Shown: in pieces, positions 100 to 38,147 of the stretch
How positions within the stretch are numbered: position 1 is the stretch's first letter
Layout: each line of letters opens with the position of its first letter
Assembly: GCA_035327385.1 (NCBI GenBank)
Contig: DAOLDN010000002.1
Span: forward strand, 1-39,546
Direction of reading: 5' to 3'
Length of the DNA: 39,546 bases
From: Verrucomicrobiota bacterium
Lineage (GTDB): Bacteria > Verrucomicrobiota > Verrucomicrobiia > Limisphaerales > JADLHS01
The notes under the pieces: model-generated
Told to the model about the DNA's origin: nothing
Databases searched by the model: none
Seen by the model: the letters and a program-made list of their open reading frames with translations, nothing else
Translations under genes and position numbers: made by a program

Positions 100-855
100 T
101 CAGATGTCCAGTTCCACACCCACCGGACAATGATCGCTGCCAGCGATGTCCGGACGGATGAACGCCCGCTTCAATCGTGGCCGCAACGCGGCGCTGATGA
201 GAAAATAATCTATCCTCCATCCGACGTTCCGCGCGCGCGCGCCGCTCATCTGGCTCCACCAGGTATAATGGCCTCCGCCCTTCTCGAATTCGCGGAATGT
301 ATCCACGAAGCCCGCCTTTACAAACGCGCCGAACCCCGCGCGTTCCTCCGGCGTGAAACCGTGATTGCGCACGTTCGCCTTCGGGTTCGCGAGATCAATC
401 TCCGTGTGCGCCACGTTCAGGTCGCCGCAAAAAACAACGGGCTTCCAGCGTTCCAGTTTCTTCAGATGGCGCAGGAAGTCGCGGTCCCATTCCTGACGGT
501 AGGCCAGACGTGTCAGTTCGCGCTTTGAGTTGGGCACATACACGTTGACCAGAAAGAAATCCTCGAATTCCGCGTTGAGCACGCGTCCTTCGCGGTCGTG
601 TTGCGCCACCCCGATGTGCGGCGTCACCCGCAGCGGTCGCGTTTTGGTGAAGATGGCCGTGCCGGAGTAGCCCTTTTTCTCGGCGCAATTCCAGTACGTG
701 GTGTATTTGGCCGGCCAGAGTTGTTCCACGTCGTCCGGGCTGCATTTGGTTTCCTGAAGACACAGCACGTCGGGCTTTTCCTGGTCCAGATATTCCAGGA
801 AGTTTTTCTTCAACACCGCGCGCAACCCGTTGACATTCCATGAGATCAGCTTCAC
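100..855 (-). CDS. xthA: Exodeoxyribonuclease III (AP endonuclease, EEP family)
   Basis: 251-aa ORF with MKLISWNVNGLRA...LCLQETK...GDLNVAH...SDHCPV, the full set of Xth/APE1 catalytic motifs. Confidence 0.95.
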   Translation of the reverse strand: MKLISWNVNGLRAVLKKNFLEYLDQEKPDVLCLQETKCSPDDVEQLWPAKYTTYWNCAEKKGYSGTAIFTKTRPLRVTPHIGVAQHDREGRVLNAEFEDFFLVNVYVPNSKRELTRLAYRQEWDRDFLRHLKKLERWKPVVFCGDLNVAHTEIDLANPKANVRNHGFTPEERAGFGAFVKAGFVDTFREFEKGGGHYTWWSQMSGARARNVGWRIDYFLISAALRPRLKRAFIRPDIAGSDHCPVGVELDI

Positions 856-30331: not shown

Positions 30332-31186
30332 TCAATGATCGCTGTTTGTCGTCTTGTTGGAGGCAATCTGATTCTGTTCCATCATCAACGTCTTCACGTC
30401 CGCCAGCACGAGACGAACGTCGAGCGTGCCGGAGCTGTAGATGTTTCGGATGTTGCCATCGCGGTCCACGAGGAACACGCGCAACGTGTGGTTCAGCGGC
30501 CCGGTCGGATCGGTGGGATTTGATTTGCGGTCAACGGCCTGGCCGTAGGCTTCGAGGATGGGCGACAATTTTTCCTGCGACGCGGTGGTGATGAATCTCC
30601 ATTCGGACGCGTTCTTGCGGCCCTGCGCCAGCGTCGAATAGGCGGCCATGCGTTCCGGCGTGTCGTTGCCGGGATCAAAACTCATGCTCACAAGCCGCAT
30701 GTTGGTGGCGAGCGATGAATCCTGCGCGCTGAGAATGTGCAAATCCCGCAACACGCCCGTGGCCATCGGACACGCCTTCGCCGCCGCGCATCGCGTGTAG
30801 ATGAAACTCATCACGGTGATGCGTCCATGTGTGAGTTCGCTCAATTTCAATTCGCGGCCTGTTGAATCGAGCACGTCGCCGTCCGCCGCCGGTTTCACGA
30901 CGGGCAACGTGTAAGTGCCGGGCGCGGGCGCGTCGTAATCGTGATCTGAAGTGCGGTCGCTGTCTGCGGCGAAGGCGGAAACCCCCGCGACTACAAGAGC
31001 CATCAGCAGCAGTGCAGCCCGGACTTTTGGACTGCGCCGGCAGAGCGCAGCGACGACGGCGCTTTCATCTGGCCCAAAAGATGTCCGTTCGGAGCAAAAG
31101 CGGTGTCGCGCTCCGCTTGCCACCGCAGTCCATAACGTCACCGGATTCGCAGTGCGTTTGCAGATGGATTGAATCTCAATGTTCAT
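30332..31186 (-). CDS. SCO1/SenC-family copper chaperone / thiol-disulfide protein
   Basis: Thioredoxin-fold SCO motifs: VMSFIYTRCAAAKACP (an atypical Cys spacing), SFDPGNDTPERM and LNHTLRVFLVDRDGNIR. The start is ambiguous (31186 or M62 at 31003), because codons 15-54 are a translated palindromic repeat. Confidence 0.8.
   Translation of the reverse strand: MNIEIQSICKRTANPVTLWTAVASGARHRFCSERTSFGPDESAVVAALCRRSPKVRAALLLMALVVAGVSAFAADSDRTSDHDYDAPAPGTYTLPVVKPAADGDVLDSTGRELKLSELTHGRITVMSFIYTRCAAAKACPMATGVLRDLHILSAQDSSLATNMRLVSMSFDPGNDTPERMAAYSTLAQGRKNASEWRFITTASQEKLSPILEAYGQAVDRKSNPTDPTGPLNHTLRVFLVDRDGNIRNIYSSGTLDVRLVLADVKTLMMEQNQIASNKTTNSDH
31025..31135. repeat. Palindromic element of about 110 bp with roughly 40-nt arms
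   Basis: The reverse complement of arm A (31025-31064) reads AAAGCGCCGTCGTCGCTGCGCTCTGCCGGCGCAGTCCAAAA. Arm B (31097-31135) reads AAAGCGGTGTCGCGCTCCGCTTGCCACCGCAGTCCATAA. One minus-strand frame reads CGGKRSATPL. Confidence 0.8.
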
Positions 31187-31213
31187 GGTCTTTGTGATTT
31201 GAGTTTGTGCCGG

Positions 31214-32665
31214 TTACTTCGCGGCCATTGTGCCATTGCCTATTTTGGTCGAACCGAACAGCATGTGATGCGGACGGCCCAGTTTGAGCGCGGTGAAATC
31301 GAGTTCAAACGTCGGCGTCAGTTCCTTGCCGTTCCAATTGTAGGCGCGCACGAATTGTTCGTTGTCCTCGCCCAGCTTGTCCCATTTAGCGAGAAGCGAG
31401 CTGCTGAAGTAGAGACGCTTCCCATCCCAGCTTTGCGACACCATGTTGAGTTGGCGGCCAATTTGTTTCTCGTAAATCTGCTTCGGCTGATGCGGATTGG
31501 ACACGTCGAAGACGCGCACCATGCCATCGCCGAAACAATCCACGAACAACAGCTTGTCGTCGGCGCTGATGCTCATGTCCACGGGGATCACGCCGCCTTC
31601 GCCGCCGATGGTCGCCACTTCCTTGGCCTGCCACTCTCCGGATTTGTCCTCGTAACAAAGCCACAACTTCGACGTGAGCGCGGTGGCGGTGAAGGCGTAA
31701 TTGCGCTTCTCGCCCCAGGCCCAGCGGATTTCCAGCGGTGCGCCGGGAACGTGAAACGCCTTCTTCGGCTGACGCGTGTGGAAATTCCACAGGACCATCG
31801 AATTGCCGAATTGCTTCATCGCGTCGGCGTCCTGAACCAGTTCGCCGAAGTTGCGGGTGTAATTCTTCCAGCCGGTGAATGACGTGGTGAGCATCACGTT
31901 TTTGCGCGGCAACACGCGGGCGTCGTAGCCGTAGCCGTCGGCGAATTCCGCACCCACGAGGCCGGGCGTGTCTTTCGTCGGCAGCCAGTGCGTGGCGATG
32001 TAATCGCCGTCGTTGCTGAACTCCACCAGAGCGGTGCGGCCGCCGTGATCTTTTGAATTCGACAGGCACGGGATCAACACGCGCCCCGGCAACGCATACA
32101 CTCCGTGCGGACCGACCGCGCCGCCGGTGATTTTCTCGAAGTTCTCAATCGTCTTGATGTGGCGCGGCTTCGCGGGGTTTGTGTAAACGTCGTAGATGAA
32201 AATCTTGCTGCTCTCCAGCCCCGACAACCAGAGCTGGCGGCGGTCGTCGGTGAATCCGCCGTGATGCGCCTCGTGGCGGCCATCAAGCGAATGACTGTGA
32301 ATGACCTTGCCGTAGGTTGGAGAGCCGGGTTTGACGTCAATCGTCACCAATTTGTCCGCGCCGTCGCCGAGGCCTTCAACGCCCAGCGTCCAGACGTAAA
32401 CGAATTCCTCCTGACCTTCGATGCGGGCCATGTAAGGCGAGGAACAGGTTTCATCCGCCCGCAATGGCAGGGCGCACGTCAGAACGGCGAGCGCTGCCAG
32501 GGCGAAGAAAAATGCGGCGGGCCGTTCACGACGTTTCAGGGGTTGGAACGACGACCTGCCGGCGATGCCGGGCGTTCTCTTGCCGTGGTTGCTGAAGCGG
32601 GCTGAAGCCCGGGATCCTGTGGCGCGGGGCGTTCGCTGCCATGAGTTCGATGTGGTTTGTTTCAT
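31214..32665 (-). CDS. Selenium-binding protein 56 family protein (methanethiol oxidase-like)
   Basis: Collinear matches to SELENBP1 as I recall it: LVTIDVKPGSPTYGKVIH, EAHHGGF, SKIFIYDV, PRKNVMLTT, PLEIRW, DDKLLFVDCFGDGMVRVFDVSNP and DGKRLYFSSSLLAKWDK. The start is trimmed to the ATG at 32665. The N-terminus includes the hydrophobic stretch RRERPAAFFFALAALAVL. Confidence 0.9.
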   Translation of the reverse strand: MKQTTSNSWQRTPRATGSRASARFSNHGKRTPGIAGRSSFQPLKRRERPAAFFFALAALAVLTCALPLRADETCSSPYMARIEGQEEFVYVWTLGVEGLGDGADKLVTIDVKPGSPTYGKVIHSHSLDGRHEAHHGGFTDDRRQLWLSGLESSKIFIYDVYTNPAKPRHIKTIENFEKITGGAVGPHGVYALPGRVLIPCLSNSKDHGGRTALVEFSNDGDYIATHWLPTKDTPGLVGAEFADGYGYDARVLPRKNVMLTTSFTGWKNYTRNFGELVQDADAMKQFGNSMVLWNFHTRQPKKAFHVPGAPLEIRWAWGEKRNYAFTATALTSKLWLCYEDKSGEWQAKEVATIGGEGGVIPVDMSISADDKLLFVDCFGDGMVRVFDVSNPHQPKQIYEKQIGRQLNMVSQSWDGKRLYFSSSLLAKWDKLGEDNEQFVRAYNWNGKELTPTFELDFTALKLGRPHHMLFGSTKIGNGTMAAK

Positions 32666-32756
32666 ACGTTCAAATGCGTTGAGAGTTGGTTTGAGATGGT
32701 GACGATAATGGCAGTCTGGCGTTTCGCTGGAAATGGACCGAAAGACCCAGCGCGCC

Positions 32757-33029
32757 TCACTCGGCGGTGACGGGATCAATGACGGTCCTGACCTCACGGA
32801 TGGCGTCCGCCGGGAAGCCGCCGCGCAAGGCGTGTTCGCGGATCAATTCCGCGCCGGGTGCGATATAGACGCAGAACAATTTGTCGTCGGTGACATAGCT
32901 CTGCTGCCATTGGATTTGCGGGCCGAGACTCTGGAGCACGCGACAGGATTTGGCGGAGACGGCGTTCAATTCCGTGGGGCTCATCTTCCCCGCGTTGGGG
33001 ATGTTTCGTTCGATGACAAACTTGGGCAT
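32757..33029 (-). CDS. DUF4242-like small protein
   Basis: MPKFVIERNIPNAGKMSPTEL...KLFCVYIAP matches my recollection of DUF4242. The start is trimmed to the ATG at 33029. Confidence 0.65.
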   Translation of the reverse strand: MPKFVIERNIPNAGKMSPTELNAVSAKSCRVLQSLGPQIQWQQSYVTDDKLFCVYIAPGAELIREHALRGGFPADAIREVRTVIDPVTAE

Positions 33030-33596
33030 AAGGGACTCGCTTTCTTTGGTTGTTGGTTGTTTCGCTCGCCGGCAACCCGCCGCGCGCTGACGCCCATCCC
33101 ATCGCGAATCACGTGCCATCCTTCCCAAACGGAACAAACCCCGGATTTGCAGGGGTTTTTGAAAACTATTGCGTTGACGACCGCTCGCGAGAAATCGCCA
33201 ATCACGAAATCTCGCGACGCGTACTCGCGAAAAATCGCAACCTGCCAGCCCGCATCAAAGCCAACCACGAATGCACGCGAATGAACTCGAATGGAATCGC
33301 CGCAAAAAAGCGCAAAGCGCGCAAAAAATTAAAACTGCGGATGCACGCAGAGGAACGCATATTCAAAGGGCTGCAAGCCCGCCAGATGACAGCCCGGAGA
33401 GAAGGTTAAATGCCCGCGAGTGCCGAGCAAGCGGGCACAAGCGAGTCAACGTGGCAAAGCCGGACGAGGATGGTCAGGAAACGATCAAACTACTTCCGCC
33501 CGGCCCGGGATTCGGTTCACACCCGCCGTCGGTGTAAATCTGAACGTGCGACGGAGTGATCGAGGTTGAAATGTTGCCCATGTCACTTTGCAAAAG

Positions 33597-34319
33597 CTAT
33601 CCGCACTTCAACCAGAGATGCCTGATCGTTATGTCTGGGGCGGGCAAATCGTTCTCGACGTATTTGAACTTGCGTTTGTGCTTGCTGATATGAACGGCTT
33701 CATTGATTGCGCCTGCTTTTGAGCGTAAGCACGGTTGCACGGTGCCGATTGTGGGAATCTGTTTGGTTCGCGTCGCCAATGCATCCGTCAATTTCGGCAG
33801 AATTGTATAGCCGCTGCTTGCATAGCCAACCATCACTGCGGTGGTCATTGTCCACGCATAGTCACCGCGAATGAATCGAATGATACCTTTGTCGCAATAG
33901 TGAGCGCCAACGGTGTGCGTGGCATCCACTGGTTTGCATTCGATGAAGATGCCATGCTGTGAGTACAAAGCGCCGGCAGGCCGATCCGCGAATTGCACGA
34001 ATAGATCAGGCATTTTGTCGGGGTGCGTTCCGTCAAAATTTCGAATCTTTGGTTCTCGGCCCACCGAAGCCAAAACCTCTGCGTCAAAACCGGGAATTAC
34101 GCCCTTGTCAAAAACCTCATCGTAAAGTCTCTCATGAAGTTCGAGTGTGATGGCGTCTTCGTCGCAAGCGGCGAGGTTGAAAGTTCCGCGTGGCTTTTCG
34201 CGCATAAGTCGCCAGGCCTCACACAATGCCAACTCGATTACGAGCAATGACCTCAAGGAAATTGGCGGGTTTGGCAACTGGATGCCAGCCCCTATTTCCT
34301 TGAAGAGGTTCAAACTCAT
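33597..34319 (-). CDS. PD-(D/E)xK-type nuclease-like protein (putative restriction endonuclease subunit)
   Basis: MPDLFVQF...(22 aa)...GIFIECKP fits the PD...ExK catalytic motif and its spacing. Its ATG lies 3 nt after the stop of the upstream methyltransferase gene. No specific family recognised. Confidence 0.65.
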   Translation of the reverse strand: MSLNLFKEIGAGIQLPNPPISLRSLLVIELALCEAWRLMREKPRGTFNLAACDEDAITLELHERLYDEVFDKGVIPGFDAEVLASVGREPKIRNFDGTHPDKMPDLFVQFADRPAGALYSQHGIFIECKPVDATHTVGAHYCDKGIIRFIRGDYAWTMTTAVMVGYASSGYTILPKLTDALATRTKQIPTIGTVQPCLRSKAGAINEAVHISKHKRKFKYVENDLPAPDITIRHLWLKCG

Positions 34320-34322
34320 GGG

Positions 34323-37300
34323 TCAGGGGTCAAACACGTCGAGGTGTTCACGGACGAGTTCCGCGCCGAGCAGTCGTGCCCGGCTCGGCGTCCAGTAGCG
34401 GTATTGGTTGAGCAACGCCACGAGCAGACCGCCCTCAATTTGCTGGACGATGCGCGTGCTGCCGGTGTCATCAGCGAGCTTAAGTAGCACCTCGCGGAAC
34501 AAACCATCCGGCGCGGGCATTGTCGTGCCGCGTTTTGAAATGAGCAGCAGGCCGAAGGGTGCGGAGGTCTGGAGAAACGCGGAGTCCGGTTTCCAAAGCT
34601 CAACGTACGGCTCGTCGCCAGTGACTTTGAAGAAAGGTCGCAAGATAGATTCGAGCCGCTTGCGGAATCGTTCGCGTTCCGCCGGCCGGGGCGGAGTGCA
34701 TGCGCGGTCTCGCGATTCGATGTAAGGCATCGCCACCTCCACCGTGTCGCGCACCACTTCCATGTCCCGGGCATCAAGGCCGAAAAGACTGCCGAAGAAG
34801 GTGTCAATCTCGTCGAAGACCGCCAGATCGCGAGCGATTAGTCGCTGGGAAAGCTGGGCGACCAACCGACGCTGTTCGGACGTGAGTTTCTCGAAGGGGA
34901 AAATCGGGCAGTCGTCGAAATCCGCTTTATCCAACACACGCCGCTCCGCACCGAAGCGCGGGCGCGTGCTGAGGGCGAAATGCATTCTTAGGTATGAGTG
35001 AGCGAACAACTGAACGTAACGGACGAGCGCTTCTCCATCACGGTGCTTCGCGGCAGAGTAGCCGGGAAAACATTGGTTGAATGCCACATCCTCAAAGCTG
35101 ATCAACGCCCAGCTTTTTTCGCGCTGAGGCCCTGGCGCTTGCTTCACCAGCAGCAGCGGCGCTCGGTAATTGTCTCGCGACCTTGGCCAGCACGCAGTGT
35201 TGCGGCCAAACGTCCGCAGTCCGGTGGTGTTCACGACAAACTCTCCGTCAGCGACAGAGGTAAAGTCCGGCAGGCGCTTGAGAAAGGAGGCGTCGCGTTG
35301 GGTTTGCCCTTCCTTCACCATGTAGCCGGCGACACTCAATAATCCCAACTGCTTTTCCCAGTAGTCTTCGAGTCGTGGACACCCTGCGCGTTGAAAGCGT
35401 TCAACAACGCCCGCATCAAGTGAAGTTCCCAGCGCCAGCGTCTTCCAAATCCACGGCTGGGCGAATGTCGCCTCGACTTCGATGGACTGCACGGATTTCG
35501 CATCAATCTGCATCTCGCCCTTCCGGTTCAGCGACGTGTCATATTGCGGCGTGATGAGCCGCAGCGTGTGGCCCGGCTTGGGCTGGCGATTGCGCGCAAA
35601 CAATAACATGAAGGGCTGGCCCATCTTCGGCCACACTGCCGTGTCGGAGAGGTTCGTGCCGTTGATGATGCCGGTGACTTCGACCCATCGCAGAAAAGTT
35701 TCGCGGGCGCGGCGCGGGATGTCCTCCTGCTTGAGCAGGATGCGCGCGGGCAACGCCATCGCGATTCGCCCACCTGGCTTGCACCATTCGGTTGCTTTCC
35801 AGACGAACGGCAAGTCCGGGCCGAAGTCTGGGTTTTCATACGCTGCCGCAGTTTGCTCGTTGGCGCGACGTTTGATGATGGCTTTGCTGAGTTGGTTGTA
35901 CTGCTCAGCGAGCGGACGATCTTTGCTTTTGAGGCTCGTCCAGGGTGGGTTGCTCAGAATCAAATCAAACTGTCCGTCGAAGCGATTTCCAACGTGTTCA
36001 CCAAGACTGCCAGCCACCGCGCCTTCAGCCGGGTCAACGCCTTCGCGACGGAAGTTGAACAAAACTTTACCACGCAGGTGATTGAAACGAAGGTCTTCCA
36101 ACGGCACAGGTTTCGGGTCGAGTTCAATGGCGGTCAGGTAAAGACTGAGAGAGGCGAGCCGGATGGCGGACTCGCTGATGTCGAAGCCGGTGAGTTGCGT
36201 ATCGAGGATTTTGCGAATGGCGCGTCTCGTTGGACGCTGCTTTGTCTCTTTCCACAGTTCCTGATAAAGTCGGCGGAAGGCGAGAACAAGGAAGACGGAT
36301 GCGCCACAGGCCGGGTCAAGCACCCGGGCTTCGTGGGCATTTGGAAGTTTGATGAACGCCTCGTCCACCAACGTGGCGGCGATGTTGCGCGGCGTGTAGT
36401 GGACGCTGGTCTCCTTCGCCGTGTCGTGTTCCCACTTCCACGCAAAACGCTCATAGACCTGGCTCAACAGGCCGACAGGAACATGGGCGAAGTCATACGC
36501 GCCCCAGTTCCGTTCCTCAGGGCGAAAGCTCAGCAGCGTTTGCCAGCCGGAGTCACCTGACGGTTCTTCGCCTTTTAGGATGGCGGTCAGGTGGATGAAA
36601 ACGCGTCCGCCTGTCCGCTGCCCAATTCCTTCAAAGTAACTGGTGTTGCCGTTGTCGGTGAGCGGGAGCAGGTCGCCATTGAAAGTTTTGTCCAGCCAGG
36701 CGGACGTACGGGCGGCGTTCTCGGCATTGGCAAAACAGTCGAAGATGCTTTTCGCCTTCGGCGCAATCTTATGGCAGTCGTCTTCGCGAACAACTTCACG
36801 GTCGCGCAGAAAACGGAAGAATAAAGCACGTCCCATCAGCGACAGAACATCTGTGCGCTTGAGGTTCAACGCCGCGAGCCGGTCGGCCACGCTCCACACC
36901 AGCTTGAACATGGCGGTGAAAACGTAATCGGCCTCCTTCGGTTCGCCTTGGCCGTCGTAGTGACCGTGGGCGAGCCGCGAGAAGAAGGTTAGCGCCTCGG
37001 GTGTGCCAGGTGTGTAACGCACCCATTCTGGCGTTTTGTCGTCCAGCGATACGGGAATGACTGCAAGCTCGCCGGGACGGATTCGAGCGAGGAAGGCGCG
37101 GTCGCCACGACAGGCGAGTTTGCGCCGTAATTCGTCGCACTTTTTATCCTGCTCGGCGGGTGGTTGACTGAGGCGACTTTCGTTGACGAAGAAAAGCAGC
37201 GGCTTGTCCTGACTTTCCGCCACTCCATCGGGCAGAAGCTCGGCAGGTCTGCGCGACTCGACCAGATCCAAATAGTCGAGCAATTCAGGTTTTGCGGAAT

Positions 37301-37358
37301 CACCAAACAACCGGACATTAGCGACACCGTAATTCTGAAGTTCGGACTTTAGGTTCAT
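34323..37358 (-). CDS. Large (1011 aa) gamma-class N6-adenine DNA methyltransferase-family protein with PglX/Eco57I-like architecture
   Basis: LFFRFLRDREVV helical N-domain, FAHVPVGLLSQVYERF, SVHYTPRNI, motif I VLDPACGASVFLV, GFDISESAI, motif IV LILSNPPWTS and GGRIAMALP, followed by a C-terminal region of about 450 aa that is presumably the target-recognition domain. Confidence 0.85.
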   Translation of the reverse strand: MNLKSELQNYGVANVRLFGDSAKPELLDYLDLVESRRPAELLPDGVAESQDKPLLFFVNESRLSQPPAEQDKKCDELRRKLACRGDRAFLARIRPGELAVIPVSLDDKTPEWVRYTPGTPEALTFFSRLAHGHYDGQGEPKEADYVFTAMFKLVWSVADRLAALNLKRTDVLSLMGRALFFRFLRDREVVREDDCHKIAPKAKSIFDCFANAENAARTSAWLDKTFNGDLLPLTDNGNTSYFEGIGQRTGGRVFIHLTAILKGEEPSGDSGWQTLLSFRPEERNWGAYDFAHVPVGLLSQVYERFAWKWEHDTAKETSVHYTPRNIAATLVDEAFIKLPNAHEARVLDPACGASVFLVLAFRRLYQELWKETKQRPTRRAIRKILDTQLTGFDISESAIRLASLSLYLTAIELDPKPVPLEDLRFNHLRGKVLFNFRREGVDPAEGAVAGSLGEHVGNRFDGQFDLILSNPPWTSLKSKDRPLAEQYNQLSKAIIKRRANEQTAAAYENPDFGPDLPFVWKATEWCKPGGRIAMALPARILLKQEDIPRRARETFLRWVEVTGIINGTNLSDTAVWPKMGQPFMLLFARNRQPKPGHTLRLITPQYDTSLNRKGEMQIDAKSVQSIEVEATFAQPWIWKTLALGTSLDAGVVERFQRAGCPRLEDYWEKQLGLLSVAGYMVKEGQTQRDASFLKRLPDFTSVADGEFVVNTTGLRTFGRNTACWPRSRDNYRAPLLLVKQAPGPQREKSWALISFEDVAFNQCFPGYSAAKHRDGEALVRYVQLFAHSYLRMHFALSTRPRFGAERRVLDKADFDDCPIFPFEKLTSEQRRLVAQLSQRLIARDLAVFDEIDTFFGSLFGLDARDMEVVRDTVEVAMPYIESRDRACTPPRPAERERFRKRLESILRPFFKVTGDEPYVELWKPDSAFLQTSAPFGLLLISKRGTTMPAPDGLFREVLLKLADDTGSTRIVQQIEGGLLVALLNQYRYWTPSRARLLGAELVREHLDVFDP

Positions 37359-37557
37359 TGTTCCACTGCTGGGCTCGTACTCCGCAGGAGTATGCGAACG
37401 TCCAGCTATTTTGCACGTTAATTTCTTTTACGCGCCAAAACCTAGCAGTGTCGGTCAGACAAAAACGGTCCAAGCAGAGTTTTCATGTGGTAATTGTCGG
37501 TTTCCTGCCAGATACGTTCCTTCGGGATGAATGGGGCTTTGAGTCGGCGCGGGTCGT

Positions 37558-37926
37558 TCACGGTTGGTTGGCGCTTCTGATGATTTCGATCAGCTTCTCC
37601 AGGTCTTCGCGCGAGGGTTTCTGACCGGAGAGCGTGCGGAAGAACACCGGGAGTTTCGTCACAAGTTCTTCGTCCTTGAGCACGTAATCAGGGATGCGCC
37701 CGCCATCCACGGCAGCGTAGTCGAAGAATTTGAGCCAGTCGTCAGTGCCGGGTTTGAGGCCGAGTTGCTTGGCCCAGGTGCGGAGGGTGGCTTCGTCGCG
37801 CGGCGGCGGGAGGACTTCGCGCTCGATCTTGCTCCAGTTGCTGGGGTCGTGGCCGTGTTCCAGACAGAATTCGCGCAGGCCGAGGCGTTGTTGCGCGCGG
37901 ATTTGTTTTATGAATTCGCCAAACAT
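37558..37926 (-). CDS. XRE-family helix-turn-helix transcriptional regulator (122 aa)
   Basis: MFGEFIKQIRAQQRLGLREFCLEHGHDPSNWSKIERE is a classic HTH_3 pattern. Only the last 122 codons of the 459-aa track ORF are plausible. Confidence 0.8.
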   Translation of the reverse strand: MFGEFIKQIRAQQRLGLREFCLEHGHDPSNWSKIEREVLPPPRDEATLRTWAKQLGLKPGTDDWLKFFDYAAVDGGRIPDYVLKDEELVTKLPVFFRTLSGQKPSREDLEKLIEIIRSANQP

Positions 37927-37939
37927 AGTTTTTGTTGCT

Positions 37940-37958
37940 GTGGTAATACATTTACCAC
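37940..37958. promoter_or_regulatory. 7-5-7 palindromic operator candidate GTGGTAA-tacat-TTACCAC upstream of the HTH gene
   Basis: A perfect inverted repeat 14-32 nt upstream of the ATG at 37926. A TTGCCA hexamer (minus strand, 37971-37976) lies upstream of it at about -35 distance. Confidence 0.5.
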
Positions 37959-38147
37959 GGCGGACAAGATTGGCAAGTGGGGAGTTTGATCCGGGCGATT
38001 CTTTCTCGCTTTGAGGGTTTGAGTCGTTTTTGGAACACGAACCCGGGGCTTCGACCTGCGCACAGCCACAGCGTGACAGGTTGCTCCAGGCAGTCATCCG
38101 GCGGACTGCCAGCTCTTTAATTGGCGTAAATTCGTGACATTCACGTC

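Follow-up and report, generated by a model that had tools for sequence, protein, structure and literature searches.

What kind of system is encoded where a methyltransferase built like a Type IIG restriction enzyme, without a nuclease motif of its own, is followed directly by the gene for a small nuclease-like protein? This question is raised by one locus in a stretch of DNA of 39,546 nucleotides (nt) from a Verrucomicrobiota bacterium, referred to here as the window. Three open reading frames (ORFs) lie on its minus strand: a helix-turn-helix (HTH) gene, the large methyltransferase gene and the small gene (Table 1). An initial interpretation made from the letters alone (the sequence-only reading) had described these ORFs as they are found, with an end coordinate of 37958 that lies 32 nt upstream of the HTH start codon, and had regarded them as a self-contained three-gene module. 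The comparative analysis supports a restriction-modification-like unit made of two genes only, namely a Type IIG/PglX-like methyltransferase and a coupled protein with a PD-(D/E)xK signature. The best interpretation of this pair is still the "split Type IIG" idea of the sequence-only reading: a restriction-modification system with an unclassified nuclease family, in which the large subunit directs a separate nuclease subunit. The probability of this interpretation is estimated at about 0.55.

The methyltransferase and the 240-residue protein are an obligate, tightly coupled and co-evolving pair. Of 185,579 species genomes of bacteria and archaea that were scanned, 200 encode a relative of the small protein, and the best 80 of these 200 were analysed; individual loci are denoted by L numbers. 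A homologue colinear with the large protein over its full length is encoded immediately upstream of the small gene, on the same strand, in 76 of the 77 loci for which upstream DNA is present, the sole exception (L055) being a 5'-truncated remnant. The pairing was also examined from the methyltransferase side, using 80 metagenome loci retrieved with its C-terminal domain, and the small gene is located immediately downstream in all 75 testable loci. The small protein is a stand-alone polypeptide, not fused to any other protein, at 166 of 166 loci examined. Over 2016 locus pairs, the identities of the two proteins correlate with r = 0.90, and across phyla both are preserved at full length, with identities of 36-88% for the large and 37-94% for the small protein. 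The 3-nt gap between the methyltransferase stop and the small-gene start codon (TGA-CCC-ATG) had been taken as a sign of translational coupling. The gap is confirmed, and the junctions in 80 related loci include values of +3 (27 loci), -4 (15), -1 (11) and +2 nt (3), which would be consistent with coupled translation. No neighbour other than LexA recurs at the related loci, and no helicase or ATPase is found among the recurring neighbours. The claim that no ATPase, helicase, PglZ or BrxC partner is conserved beside the pair consequently holds for the window and the related loci.

The pair spans at least eight phyla as well as proteobacterial plasmids. The best 80 genomes come from Verrucomicrobiota, Planctomycetota, Acidobacteriota, NC10, Nitrospinota, Bacteroidota, Abditibacteriota and Desulfobacterota, the last including Geobacter and Malonomonas rubra DSM 5091, together with one metagenome-assembled genome (MAG) of Methylococcaceae. 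In a few loci the small gene is intact and the methyltransferase gene is not. In L054 (5936-7138), an insertion sequence (IS) transposase has left only the last 263 residues of the methyltransferase; in L031 (6438-7989), a frameshifted C-terminal remnant is present; and in L092 (B. glumae p22s3p), the annotation splits the methyltransferase into two ORFs of 548 and 448 residues. The survival of an intact nuclease gene beside a broken methyltransferase (L031, L054) was considered as evidence that the nuclease is harmless by itself. This argument was set aside as weak, because the IS insertion may also abolish nuclease expression and because MAG assemblies can be chimeric.

The large protein is a gamma-class methyltransferase, as had been proposed. 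Pfam N6_Mtase (8.8e-14), Eco57I and MmeI_Mtase match it above their cut-offs and together cover approximately residues 297-565, and the motifs HYTPR (320-324), DPACGASVFL (348-357) and NPPW (470-473) are located where the earlier description had placed them. Type IIG models score best among the PADLOC profiles. The top match, REase_MTase_IIG (6.7e-23), aligns residues 160-684 with model positions 166-651, so that the first 165 positions of the profile, which represent the nuclease part, are left unmatched. The NCBIfam PglX models reach only 25-36 bits, far under their cut-offs of 400-900, and a MAD2 match is likewise far under its cut-off. In structural comparisons with Foldseek, the top whole-length match in the PDB is BpuSI (3s1s, E = 4.8e-13), followed by M.BseCI/CamA, BrxX/PglX and DrdV. 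The central and C-terminal parts are strongly matched by M.BseCI and CamA, and the central part also by M.TaqI. The AlphaFold2 (AF2) model has an overall predicted local distance difference test score (pLDDT) of 71; its quality is good over residues 620-1011 but low over residues 266-457 (pLDDT <50).

A conservation profile of the large protein was calculated over 64 loci (36-88% identity). Both the S-adenosylmethionine motif (DPACGASVF, 348-356) and NPPW are invariant. The G-A-S form of motif I had been described as a deviation, and this description has to be abandoned: such a form falls within the normal variation of gamma-class enzymes, and residues D348, C351, G352, A353 and F356 are invariant in the family. 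The least conserved stretch, at approximately 640-800, is the expected place of the recognition domain. Residues 1-300, checked in 64 members, and the C-terminal 412 residues (600-1011) have no match among Pfam families or PDB sequences. Among the N-terminal residues, G11, Y29, L30, D31, L32, E48, L55 and R84 are invariant, and the 64 loci contain neither a conserved lysine nor a conserved (D/E)xK in this region. The absence of a PD-ExK nuclease from the large protein, which had been noted earlier, is thus supported both by the lack of a nuclease-domain match and by the lack of a conserved N-terminal (D/E)xK. One candidate, P43-D44...E60-S-R62, read as a BpuSI-like PD-x15-ExK active site, was rejected; E60 and R62 are lost in distant members. 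Overall, the large protein has the Type IIG/IIL/PglX architecture minus the fused nuclease that defines that family.

Two short segments of the large protein are exceptionally well conserved. In the C-terminal tail QYRYWTxSRARLL (residues 985-1011, window 34323-34400), R987, W989, T990, R993, A994 and R995 are invariant across phyla. In the N-terminal domain, the segment Y-L-D-L...AVAE(48), comprising residues 29-48, is very strongly conserved. The tail and the 29-48 patch are candidates for a surface on which the small protein docks, or for a non-canonical active site.

The small protein belongs to an uncurated family. It has 483 homologues in a word-indexed search, all labelled "hypothetical" and all without Pfam domains, and a full hidden Markov model search retrieves 599 clusters at 50% identity, of which the best 150 are all at most 274 residues long. 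No match was found in Pfam, NCBIfam, PADLOC, PHROGs or PDB sequences and profiles, including searches with 64 and 115 members taken singly, and none in phage and viral-contig searches. Nevertheless, the motifs PDLFV (104-108) and IECK (126-129) are present at the places given previously, and the residues of the PD-(D/E)xK signature (E54, P104-D105 and E127-C-K129) are invariant in 115 members with 25-53% identity. The complete list of invariant residues is E54, D105, E127, K129, Y141, G145, Y154, H214, R216 and H234, and the tetrad E54/D105/E127/K129 is present in 78 of 78 full-length copies from genome loci. A poorly conserved stretch is located at approximately 183-212. The AF2 model (pLDDT 88.8, predicted template modelling score 0.89) contains a helix at 54-70, strands at 83-88, 106-110 and 123-131, a helix at 137-151 and a strand at 160-167. 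P104-D105 is placed at the start of strand 106-110 and E127-C-K129 inside strand 123-131. Judged by the order of secondary-structure elements in this model, the fold would correspond to a canonical PD-(D/E)xK core. The nuclease proposed in the sequence-only reading is therefore supported by the invariant E/D/E/K residues and by the predicted element order, but not by a significant match to a known nuclease. Because no known nuclease is matched, the assignment is based on motif and topology instead of database membership, and on these grounds it is a well-supported inference.

The extent of the mobile unit can be defined by comparison with copies in unrelated contexts, since the homology with these copies stops at its limits. 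The cassettes of L087 and L089 are 85-90% identical to that of the window, but they sit in entirely different neighbourhoods with other upstream genes. On the leader side, homology begins at 37479 for L089 (85%) and at 37470 for L087 (90%); on the 3' side, it ends at 33563 for L089 and at 33606 for L087. The cassette of the window consequently extends from 33563 to 37479, that is, 3.9 kb including a leader of about 120 nt, and ends 34 nt past the small-gene stop. The leader presumably carries a putative promoter of the cassette itself. The guanine-cytosine (GC) content of the cassette (0.568) is not an outlier relative to the window (0.588), and a scan of the locus for promoter and terminator signals gave none that was significant, with counts near those in shuffled sequence. 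No convincing flanking inverted or direct repeats, tRNA genes or integrases that would explain mobility were found at the cassette, and no integrase, transposase or other mobile-element gene adjoins the pair in five chromosomal contexts with gene calls. The pair also occurs on plasmids from cultured Proteobacteria, where RefSeq labels the two genes "N-6 DNA methylase" and "hypothetical protein". Two such copies are located within plasmid defence islands, in Agrobacterium tumefaciens K224 (pAtK224b, L091) and Allorhizobium pseudoryzae DSM 19479 (L102). Their neighbours include AbiE, a restriction endonuclease, an integrase, Dnd-like genes, toxin-antitoxin systems (VapC/Phd), an ImmA/HTH pair with a nucleotidyltransferase, an HNH endonuclease and a SIR2 protein. 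Taken as a whole, the comparison of these sequences shows that the two-gene unit is a self-contained, horizontally mobile, restriction-modification-like cassette.

For the split Type IIG interpretation, in which complex formation, the division of labour and a role in defence are all inferred, the following mechanism can be proposed. Both proteins would assemble into a hetero-complex. The large subunit would find the target sequence and methylate the host DNA, and at unmethylated sites of incoming DNA it would position or license the small subunit to cut. The pair would then behave like a Type IIG enzyme with its nuclease relocated to a dedicated subunit of its own. With regard to regulation, the cassette would bring its own 120-nt leader, and other lineages would have acquired LexA with SOS boxes or small XRE repressors.

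Several points weigh against this interpretation. The results fit a hetero-complex and two independently acting Type II enzymes alike, and M.BseCI, a strong structural match, belongs to a classical Type IIP system. The fold of the N-terminal domain is not securely assigned, and the model of the large protein is poor in the methyltransferase core. A non-canonical N-terminal active site in the large protein, involving the invariant D31, E48 and R84, is conceivable. For the small protein, a Foldseek search of the PDB and BFVD returned no match at E <=1e-3; the best PDB match has E = 0.05 and is to unrelated proteins, and EcoO109I, BglII and McrC appear only at E 0.9-2.6. Finally, most chromosomal copies, including that of the window, are found among housekeeping genes and not in defence islands.

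Comparison with known systems helps to locate the pair. With Type IIG/IIL enzymes (BpuSI, MmeI, DrdV), it shares the methyltransferase core, the helical connector and the C-terminal recognition region in one chain of about 1000 residues. The evidence for this likeness is the whole-length structural match to BpuSI, the Type IIG profile as the top defence model, and the MmeI_Mtase and Eco57I matches. Those enzymes, however, are single polypeptides with an active fused N-terminal PD-(D/E)xK domain, whereas here the N-terminal 160 residues match no nuclease model and contain no conserved (D/E)xK, and a separate nuclease-like gene is always attached. With PglX/BrxX of bacteriophage exclusion (BREX) systems, the pair shares a large Type IIG-derived methyltransferase that does not itself cleave, as reflected in structural matches to 8c45 and 9ewz and in the sub-threshold profile matches. 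It differs from BREX in that PglZ, BrxC, BrxA, BrxB and BrxL are absent from the window and do not recur at related loci, in that the partner is a small PD-(D/E)xK-like protein, and in the low PglX scores. Classical Type II systems (BseCI, TaqI) likewise have adjoining genes for a methyltransferase and a small nuclease, and M.BseCI, CamA and M.TaqI are structural matches. In contrast to them, the large protein carries about 290 additional conserved residues at its N-terminus and about 200 more at its C-terminus, the conservation of both partners is unusually high, and the junction is strictly coupled. Type I and Type III systems differ as well: no HsdR/HsdS or Res subunit is present, and only two genes are conserved at the related loci.

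No described system of the same architecture was found in the literature, with REBASE outside the scope of the search. The nearest are the MANTIS/Gao_RL and DUF499 systems and a split pair in Haloferax. In the MANTIS/Gao_RL and DUF499 BREX-related systems, self DNA carries the marks of a PglX-like methyltransferase and non-self DNA is cleaved by a distinct nuclease effector, and these systems need AAA+ ATPases and a helicase-nuclease (doi 10.64898/2026.09.23.753747; PMC12839542). The components MtsA (AAA+ ATPase), MtsB and MtsD (helicase-nuclease) of MANTIS are absent from the window and the related loci. In Haloferax volcanii, HVO_A0006 and HVO_A0237 have been hypothesised to form a split Type IIG system of a methyltransferase and a separate PD-(D/E)xK protein; that nuclease arose by transposition as a fragment with homology to the N-terminal domain of Type IIG enzymes, and the genes are not adjacent (PMC4389544). 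Here, in contrast, the nuclease family shows no sequence relationship to the N-termini of Type IIG enzymes, its gene is downstream, coupled and conserved across phyla, and the methyltransferase still keeps its N-terminal domain.

In other clades, the pair is accompanied by regulators of different origin. A bona fide LexA gene (LexA_DNA_bind and Peptidase_S24) is present at 16 loci, mostly from Desulfobacterota, Nitrospinota and Bacteroidales, and overlaps the methyltransferase start in 12 of them. Such overlapping lexA-methyltransferase-nuclease operons are L062, L064, L070, L072, L074, L076, L080-L082 and L084-L086. Exact E. coli-type SOS boxes (CTGT-N8-ACAG) are located 9-41 nt upstream of lexA in 4 of 15 loci examined (L062, L064, L076 and L085), compared with about 0.07 expected by chance according to the estimate of this analysis. 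On the Rhizobiaceae plasmids (L091, L102), a 96-residue XRE gene lies upstream of the pair, and Pseudomonas and Burkholderia plasmids carry a homologous ORF of 151-163 residues, of no known family, at this position. The idea of an associated regulator therefore holds insofar as other clades have upstream regulators, but these come from families unrelated to the HTH protein of the window. Regulator-methyltransferase-nuclease trios appear to be a recurrent but non-orthologous theme, in which DNA-damage-responsive control stands out, and the operons with SOS boxes would imply SOS-gated expression of the cassette in the LexA clade. A broader and more tentative proposal can also be made, and it is more doubtful than the split Type IIG interpretation itself. 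The pair may represent a distinct and widespread class of methylation-based immunity, in which a nuclease-less, PglX/Type IIG-derived methyltransferase serves as a reading and self-marking platform for a docked PD-(D/E)xK subunit, with damage gating in several lineages. The docking site might then be the conserved N-terminal domain of the methyltransferase or its invariant C-terminal tail. LexA and the SOS boxes would cause restriction to be turned on by infection-associated damage instead of being constitutive.

The alternative that survives best is an ordinary Type II system. It would consist of a large methyltransferase, similar to M.BseCI or M.TaqI with extra domains, and a small homodimeric endonuclease, both acting on the same site without forming a complex. 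Adjoining genes for a methyltransferase and a small PD-(D/E)xK protein are the standard layout of such systems, 240 residues is a typical size for a Type IIP enzyme, and M.BseCI and CamA match the central and C-terminal parts of the large protein; the poorly conserved region of the small protein could read DNA. Restriction endonucleases, however, usually diverge past recognition, whereas both proteins of the pair are conserved over their full length across phyla. In addition, the partners never reshuffle, as the identity correlation indicates, and the roughly 290 conserved N-terminal residues and the conserved tail Q985-R995 would be needless for a stand-alone methyltransferase. The intact nuclease ORFs beside the broken methyltransferases of L054 and L031 count in the same direction, but weakly, as the nuclease may be silenced too. 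Because of the full-length conservation of both proteins, the lack of partner shuffling, and the retention of the N-terminal domain and the C-terminal tail, with the surviving nuclease ORFs as a weak addition, the balance tilts to the complex, and two independent enzymes are considered rather unlikely.

A main function other than defence also has to be considered. The two genes could be a damage-induced pair for DNA repair or processing or a selfish addiction cassette, or the small protein could be a catalytically silent adaptor or sensor with a nuclease fold. The control of one clade by LexA with SOS boxes fits such roles, as do the solitary position of most chromosomal copies among housekeeping genes, with no adjoining mobile-element gene in the five contexts, the lack of homologues in the phage collections, and a nuclease fold that no database match confirms. 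The invariant E/D/E/K tetrad, on the other hand, favours catalysis over a dead adaptor, and the patchy spread among phyla, like the copies on plasmids and in defence islands, is in keeping with a mobile element for defence or addiction. Damage-responsive regulators, moreover, already control bona fide defence operons, for example through CapH/CapP (doi 10.1101/2022.04.27.489752; PMC13228613). These alternatives together are judged improbable.

The HTH gene is best regarded as context and not as a component, because the cassette appears to have been inserted into an unrelated switch made of an XRE repressor and an M78 peptidase. The HTH protein has a borderline Pfam match (HTH_19, 4.8e-07), and none of the 86 related cassette loci compared contains a homologue. 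The synteny expected in relatives is thus found for the two-gene core (76/77 and 75/75 loci) but not for the HTH gene, and the idea of a self-contained three-gene module has to be given up. The HTH family comprises 781 homologues with 79-93% identity. Elsewhere, the gene usually overlaps by 4 nt with a gene for a Peptidase_M78 protein of 211 residues, which is followed by variable cargo: SMODS with S_4TM, a DEAD/ResIII helicase, or unknown proteins of 234 and 1055 residues. Singletons include an M78 N-terminus fused to RNase H and an unknown 351-residue protein without a called M78 gene. The peptidase is intact in the relatives L093-L095, L097 and L099. In the window, a remnant ORF overlaps the HTH stop by GTGA, and its first 22-24 residues are nearly identical to the N-termini of the 211-residue M78 proteins of L093 and L097. 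DNA homology to L097 (88%) extends from 37958 down to 37504 and then ends, which is about 25 nt from the cassette start at 37479, and the window contains nothing else of the peptidase gene.

Switches of an XRE repressor and an M78 peptidase, of the ImmR/ImmA or CapH/CapP type, have been described (doi 10.1101/2022.04.27.489752; PMC13228613). CapH/CapP are reported to de-repress immune operons upon DNA damage (doi 10.1101/2022.04.27.489752), and a GAF domain has been described for CapP (PMC13228613). With ImmR/ImmA, DdrO/IrrE and CapH/CapP, the HTH family shares the 4-nt overlap and the location upstream of variable, often defence-like cargo. The window differs in that its peptidase gene is reduced to about 23 homologous codons, so that an intact M78 partner is missing, compared with about 211 residues in the relatives. 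The window therefore holds a decayed switch of this type, with the HTH gene as its surviving repressor half. The cassette would have landed in this switch, or replaced part of it, and thereby truncated the peptidase gene. The HTH gene together with the 5' end of the M78 gene (window 37442-37965, minus strand, and L093-L099) is a conserved unit in many metagenomes, with 78-88% nucleotide identity. Breakpoints recur within the 5' part of the M78 gene, which breaks off near codon 23 in the window and near codon 55 in L096, the rest being the RNase H fusion in the latter. This recurrence suggests a hot spot for cargo exchange or recombination.

The sequence-only reading had also proposed that the HTH protein acts in the manner of a C-protein on a palindromic operator. 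The controller is not co-inherited with the cassette, and its family normally precedes an M78 peptidase and other cargo. Even L087 and L089, whose cassettes are 85-90% identical to that of the window, do not retain the palindrome: its position reads TACTCCTGCGCAGTC in both, without the second arm, and the palindrome is probably a coincidence. A three-gene module, with the HTH protein timing the methyltransferase before the nuclease, is therefore very unlikely: the genes are co-oriented with the HTH gene upstream, a 6+6 palindrome lies 20-35 nt upstream of the methyltransferase start codon, and similar trios occur in other clades, but the absence of the HTH gene from all 86 cassette loci, its usual M78 partner, the truncation of the peptidase gene next to the cassette boundary and the loss of the palindrome in the closest cassettes all oppose it, and with the two cassette genes coupled, one common regulator could not set different timings for methyltransferase and nuclease.

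If the two proteins do form a complex, the pair would occupy the gap that separates Type IIG enzymes, which consist of a single chain, from BREX-like systems with their multiple components. As such, it would represent a minimal design of a methyltransferase platform with a detachable nuclease, and one route by which Type IIG cleavage can be lost and regained. The practical consequences concern annotation. The family of the small protein is invisible to Pfam, NCBIfam, PADLOC and PHROGs despite about 600 clusters and an occurrence in about 200 of the 185,579 species genomes. Defence-annotation tools probably overlook these loci or mislabel them as orphan methyltransferases, and surveys of methylomes and defence islands would be skewed as a result, above all in Verrucomicrobiota, Planctomycetota, Acidobacteriota and Desulfobacterota. 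The LexA-linked clade offers a testable case of SOS-controlled restriction-modification, and the Rhizobiaceae carriers (L091, L102) are cultured and therefore practical for experiments. The result for the HTH gene is a caution on inference from gene neighbourhoods, as a tidy trio of regulator, methyltransferase and nuclease can be an accident of insertion.

Table 1. Features of the cassette and its surroundings in the window, with the domain layout of the large protein (residue numbers)
Feature	Position	Strand	Description
Small gene	33597-34319	minus	240 aa; PD-(D/E)xK signature, putative nuclease subunit; uncurated family
Large gene	34323-37358	minus	1011 aa; gamma-class N6-adenine DNA methyltransferase, Type IIG/IIL/PglX-like architecture
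HTH gene	37558-37926	minus	122 aa, XRE-type, begins MFGEF; neighbour of the cassette, not a component
3-nt spacer TGA-CCC-ATG	34320-34322	minus	Methyltransferase stop to small-gene start; site of any translational coupling
Cassette 5' leader	37359-37479	minus	About 120 nt; DNA homology with L089 and L087
Cassette 3' end	33563-33596	minus	About 34 nt past the small-gene stop; homology limit with L089
Palindrome TACTCC-TGC-GGAGTA	37378-37392	minus	Within the leader; presumably the "operator" of the sequence-only reading
Remnant ORF, 39 codons, VNDPRRLKAPFIPKERIWQ...	37442-37561	minus	Truncated 5' end of an M78 (ImmA/IrrE/CapP-like) peptidase gene
Large protein, N-terminal	residues ~1-160
Large protein, helical connector	residues ~160-295
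Large protein, methyltransferase core	residues ~296-600
Large protein, target recognition domain (TRD)-like	residues ~640-800		Least conserved
Large protein, C-terminal domain	residues 800-1011		Conserved

The surroundings of the cassette agree with the earlier description. SCO1/SenC, SBP56-like and SCO4226-like proteins are encoded on one side and a PAS/sigma-54 activator on the other, and the non-coding spacer at 33030-33596 measures 567 bp. The downstream genes at 30332-33029 (minus strand) encode SCO1/SenC, SBP56 (selenium-binding or methanethiol-oxidase-like) and an SCO4226-like nickel-responsive protein. They fit the "sulfur/copper cluster" named earlier and are unrelated to the cassette. 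Within the spacer, just outside the cassette, a sub-threshold match to the Rfam sRNA motif Acido-Lenti-1 (RF01687) is located at 33367-33427 on the minus strand. It scores 24.2 bits against a gathering score of 37, and both stems form. Beyond it, this strand has two terminator-like hairpins, at 33335-33350 and 33310-33322.

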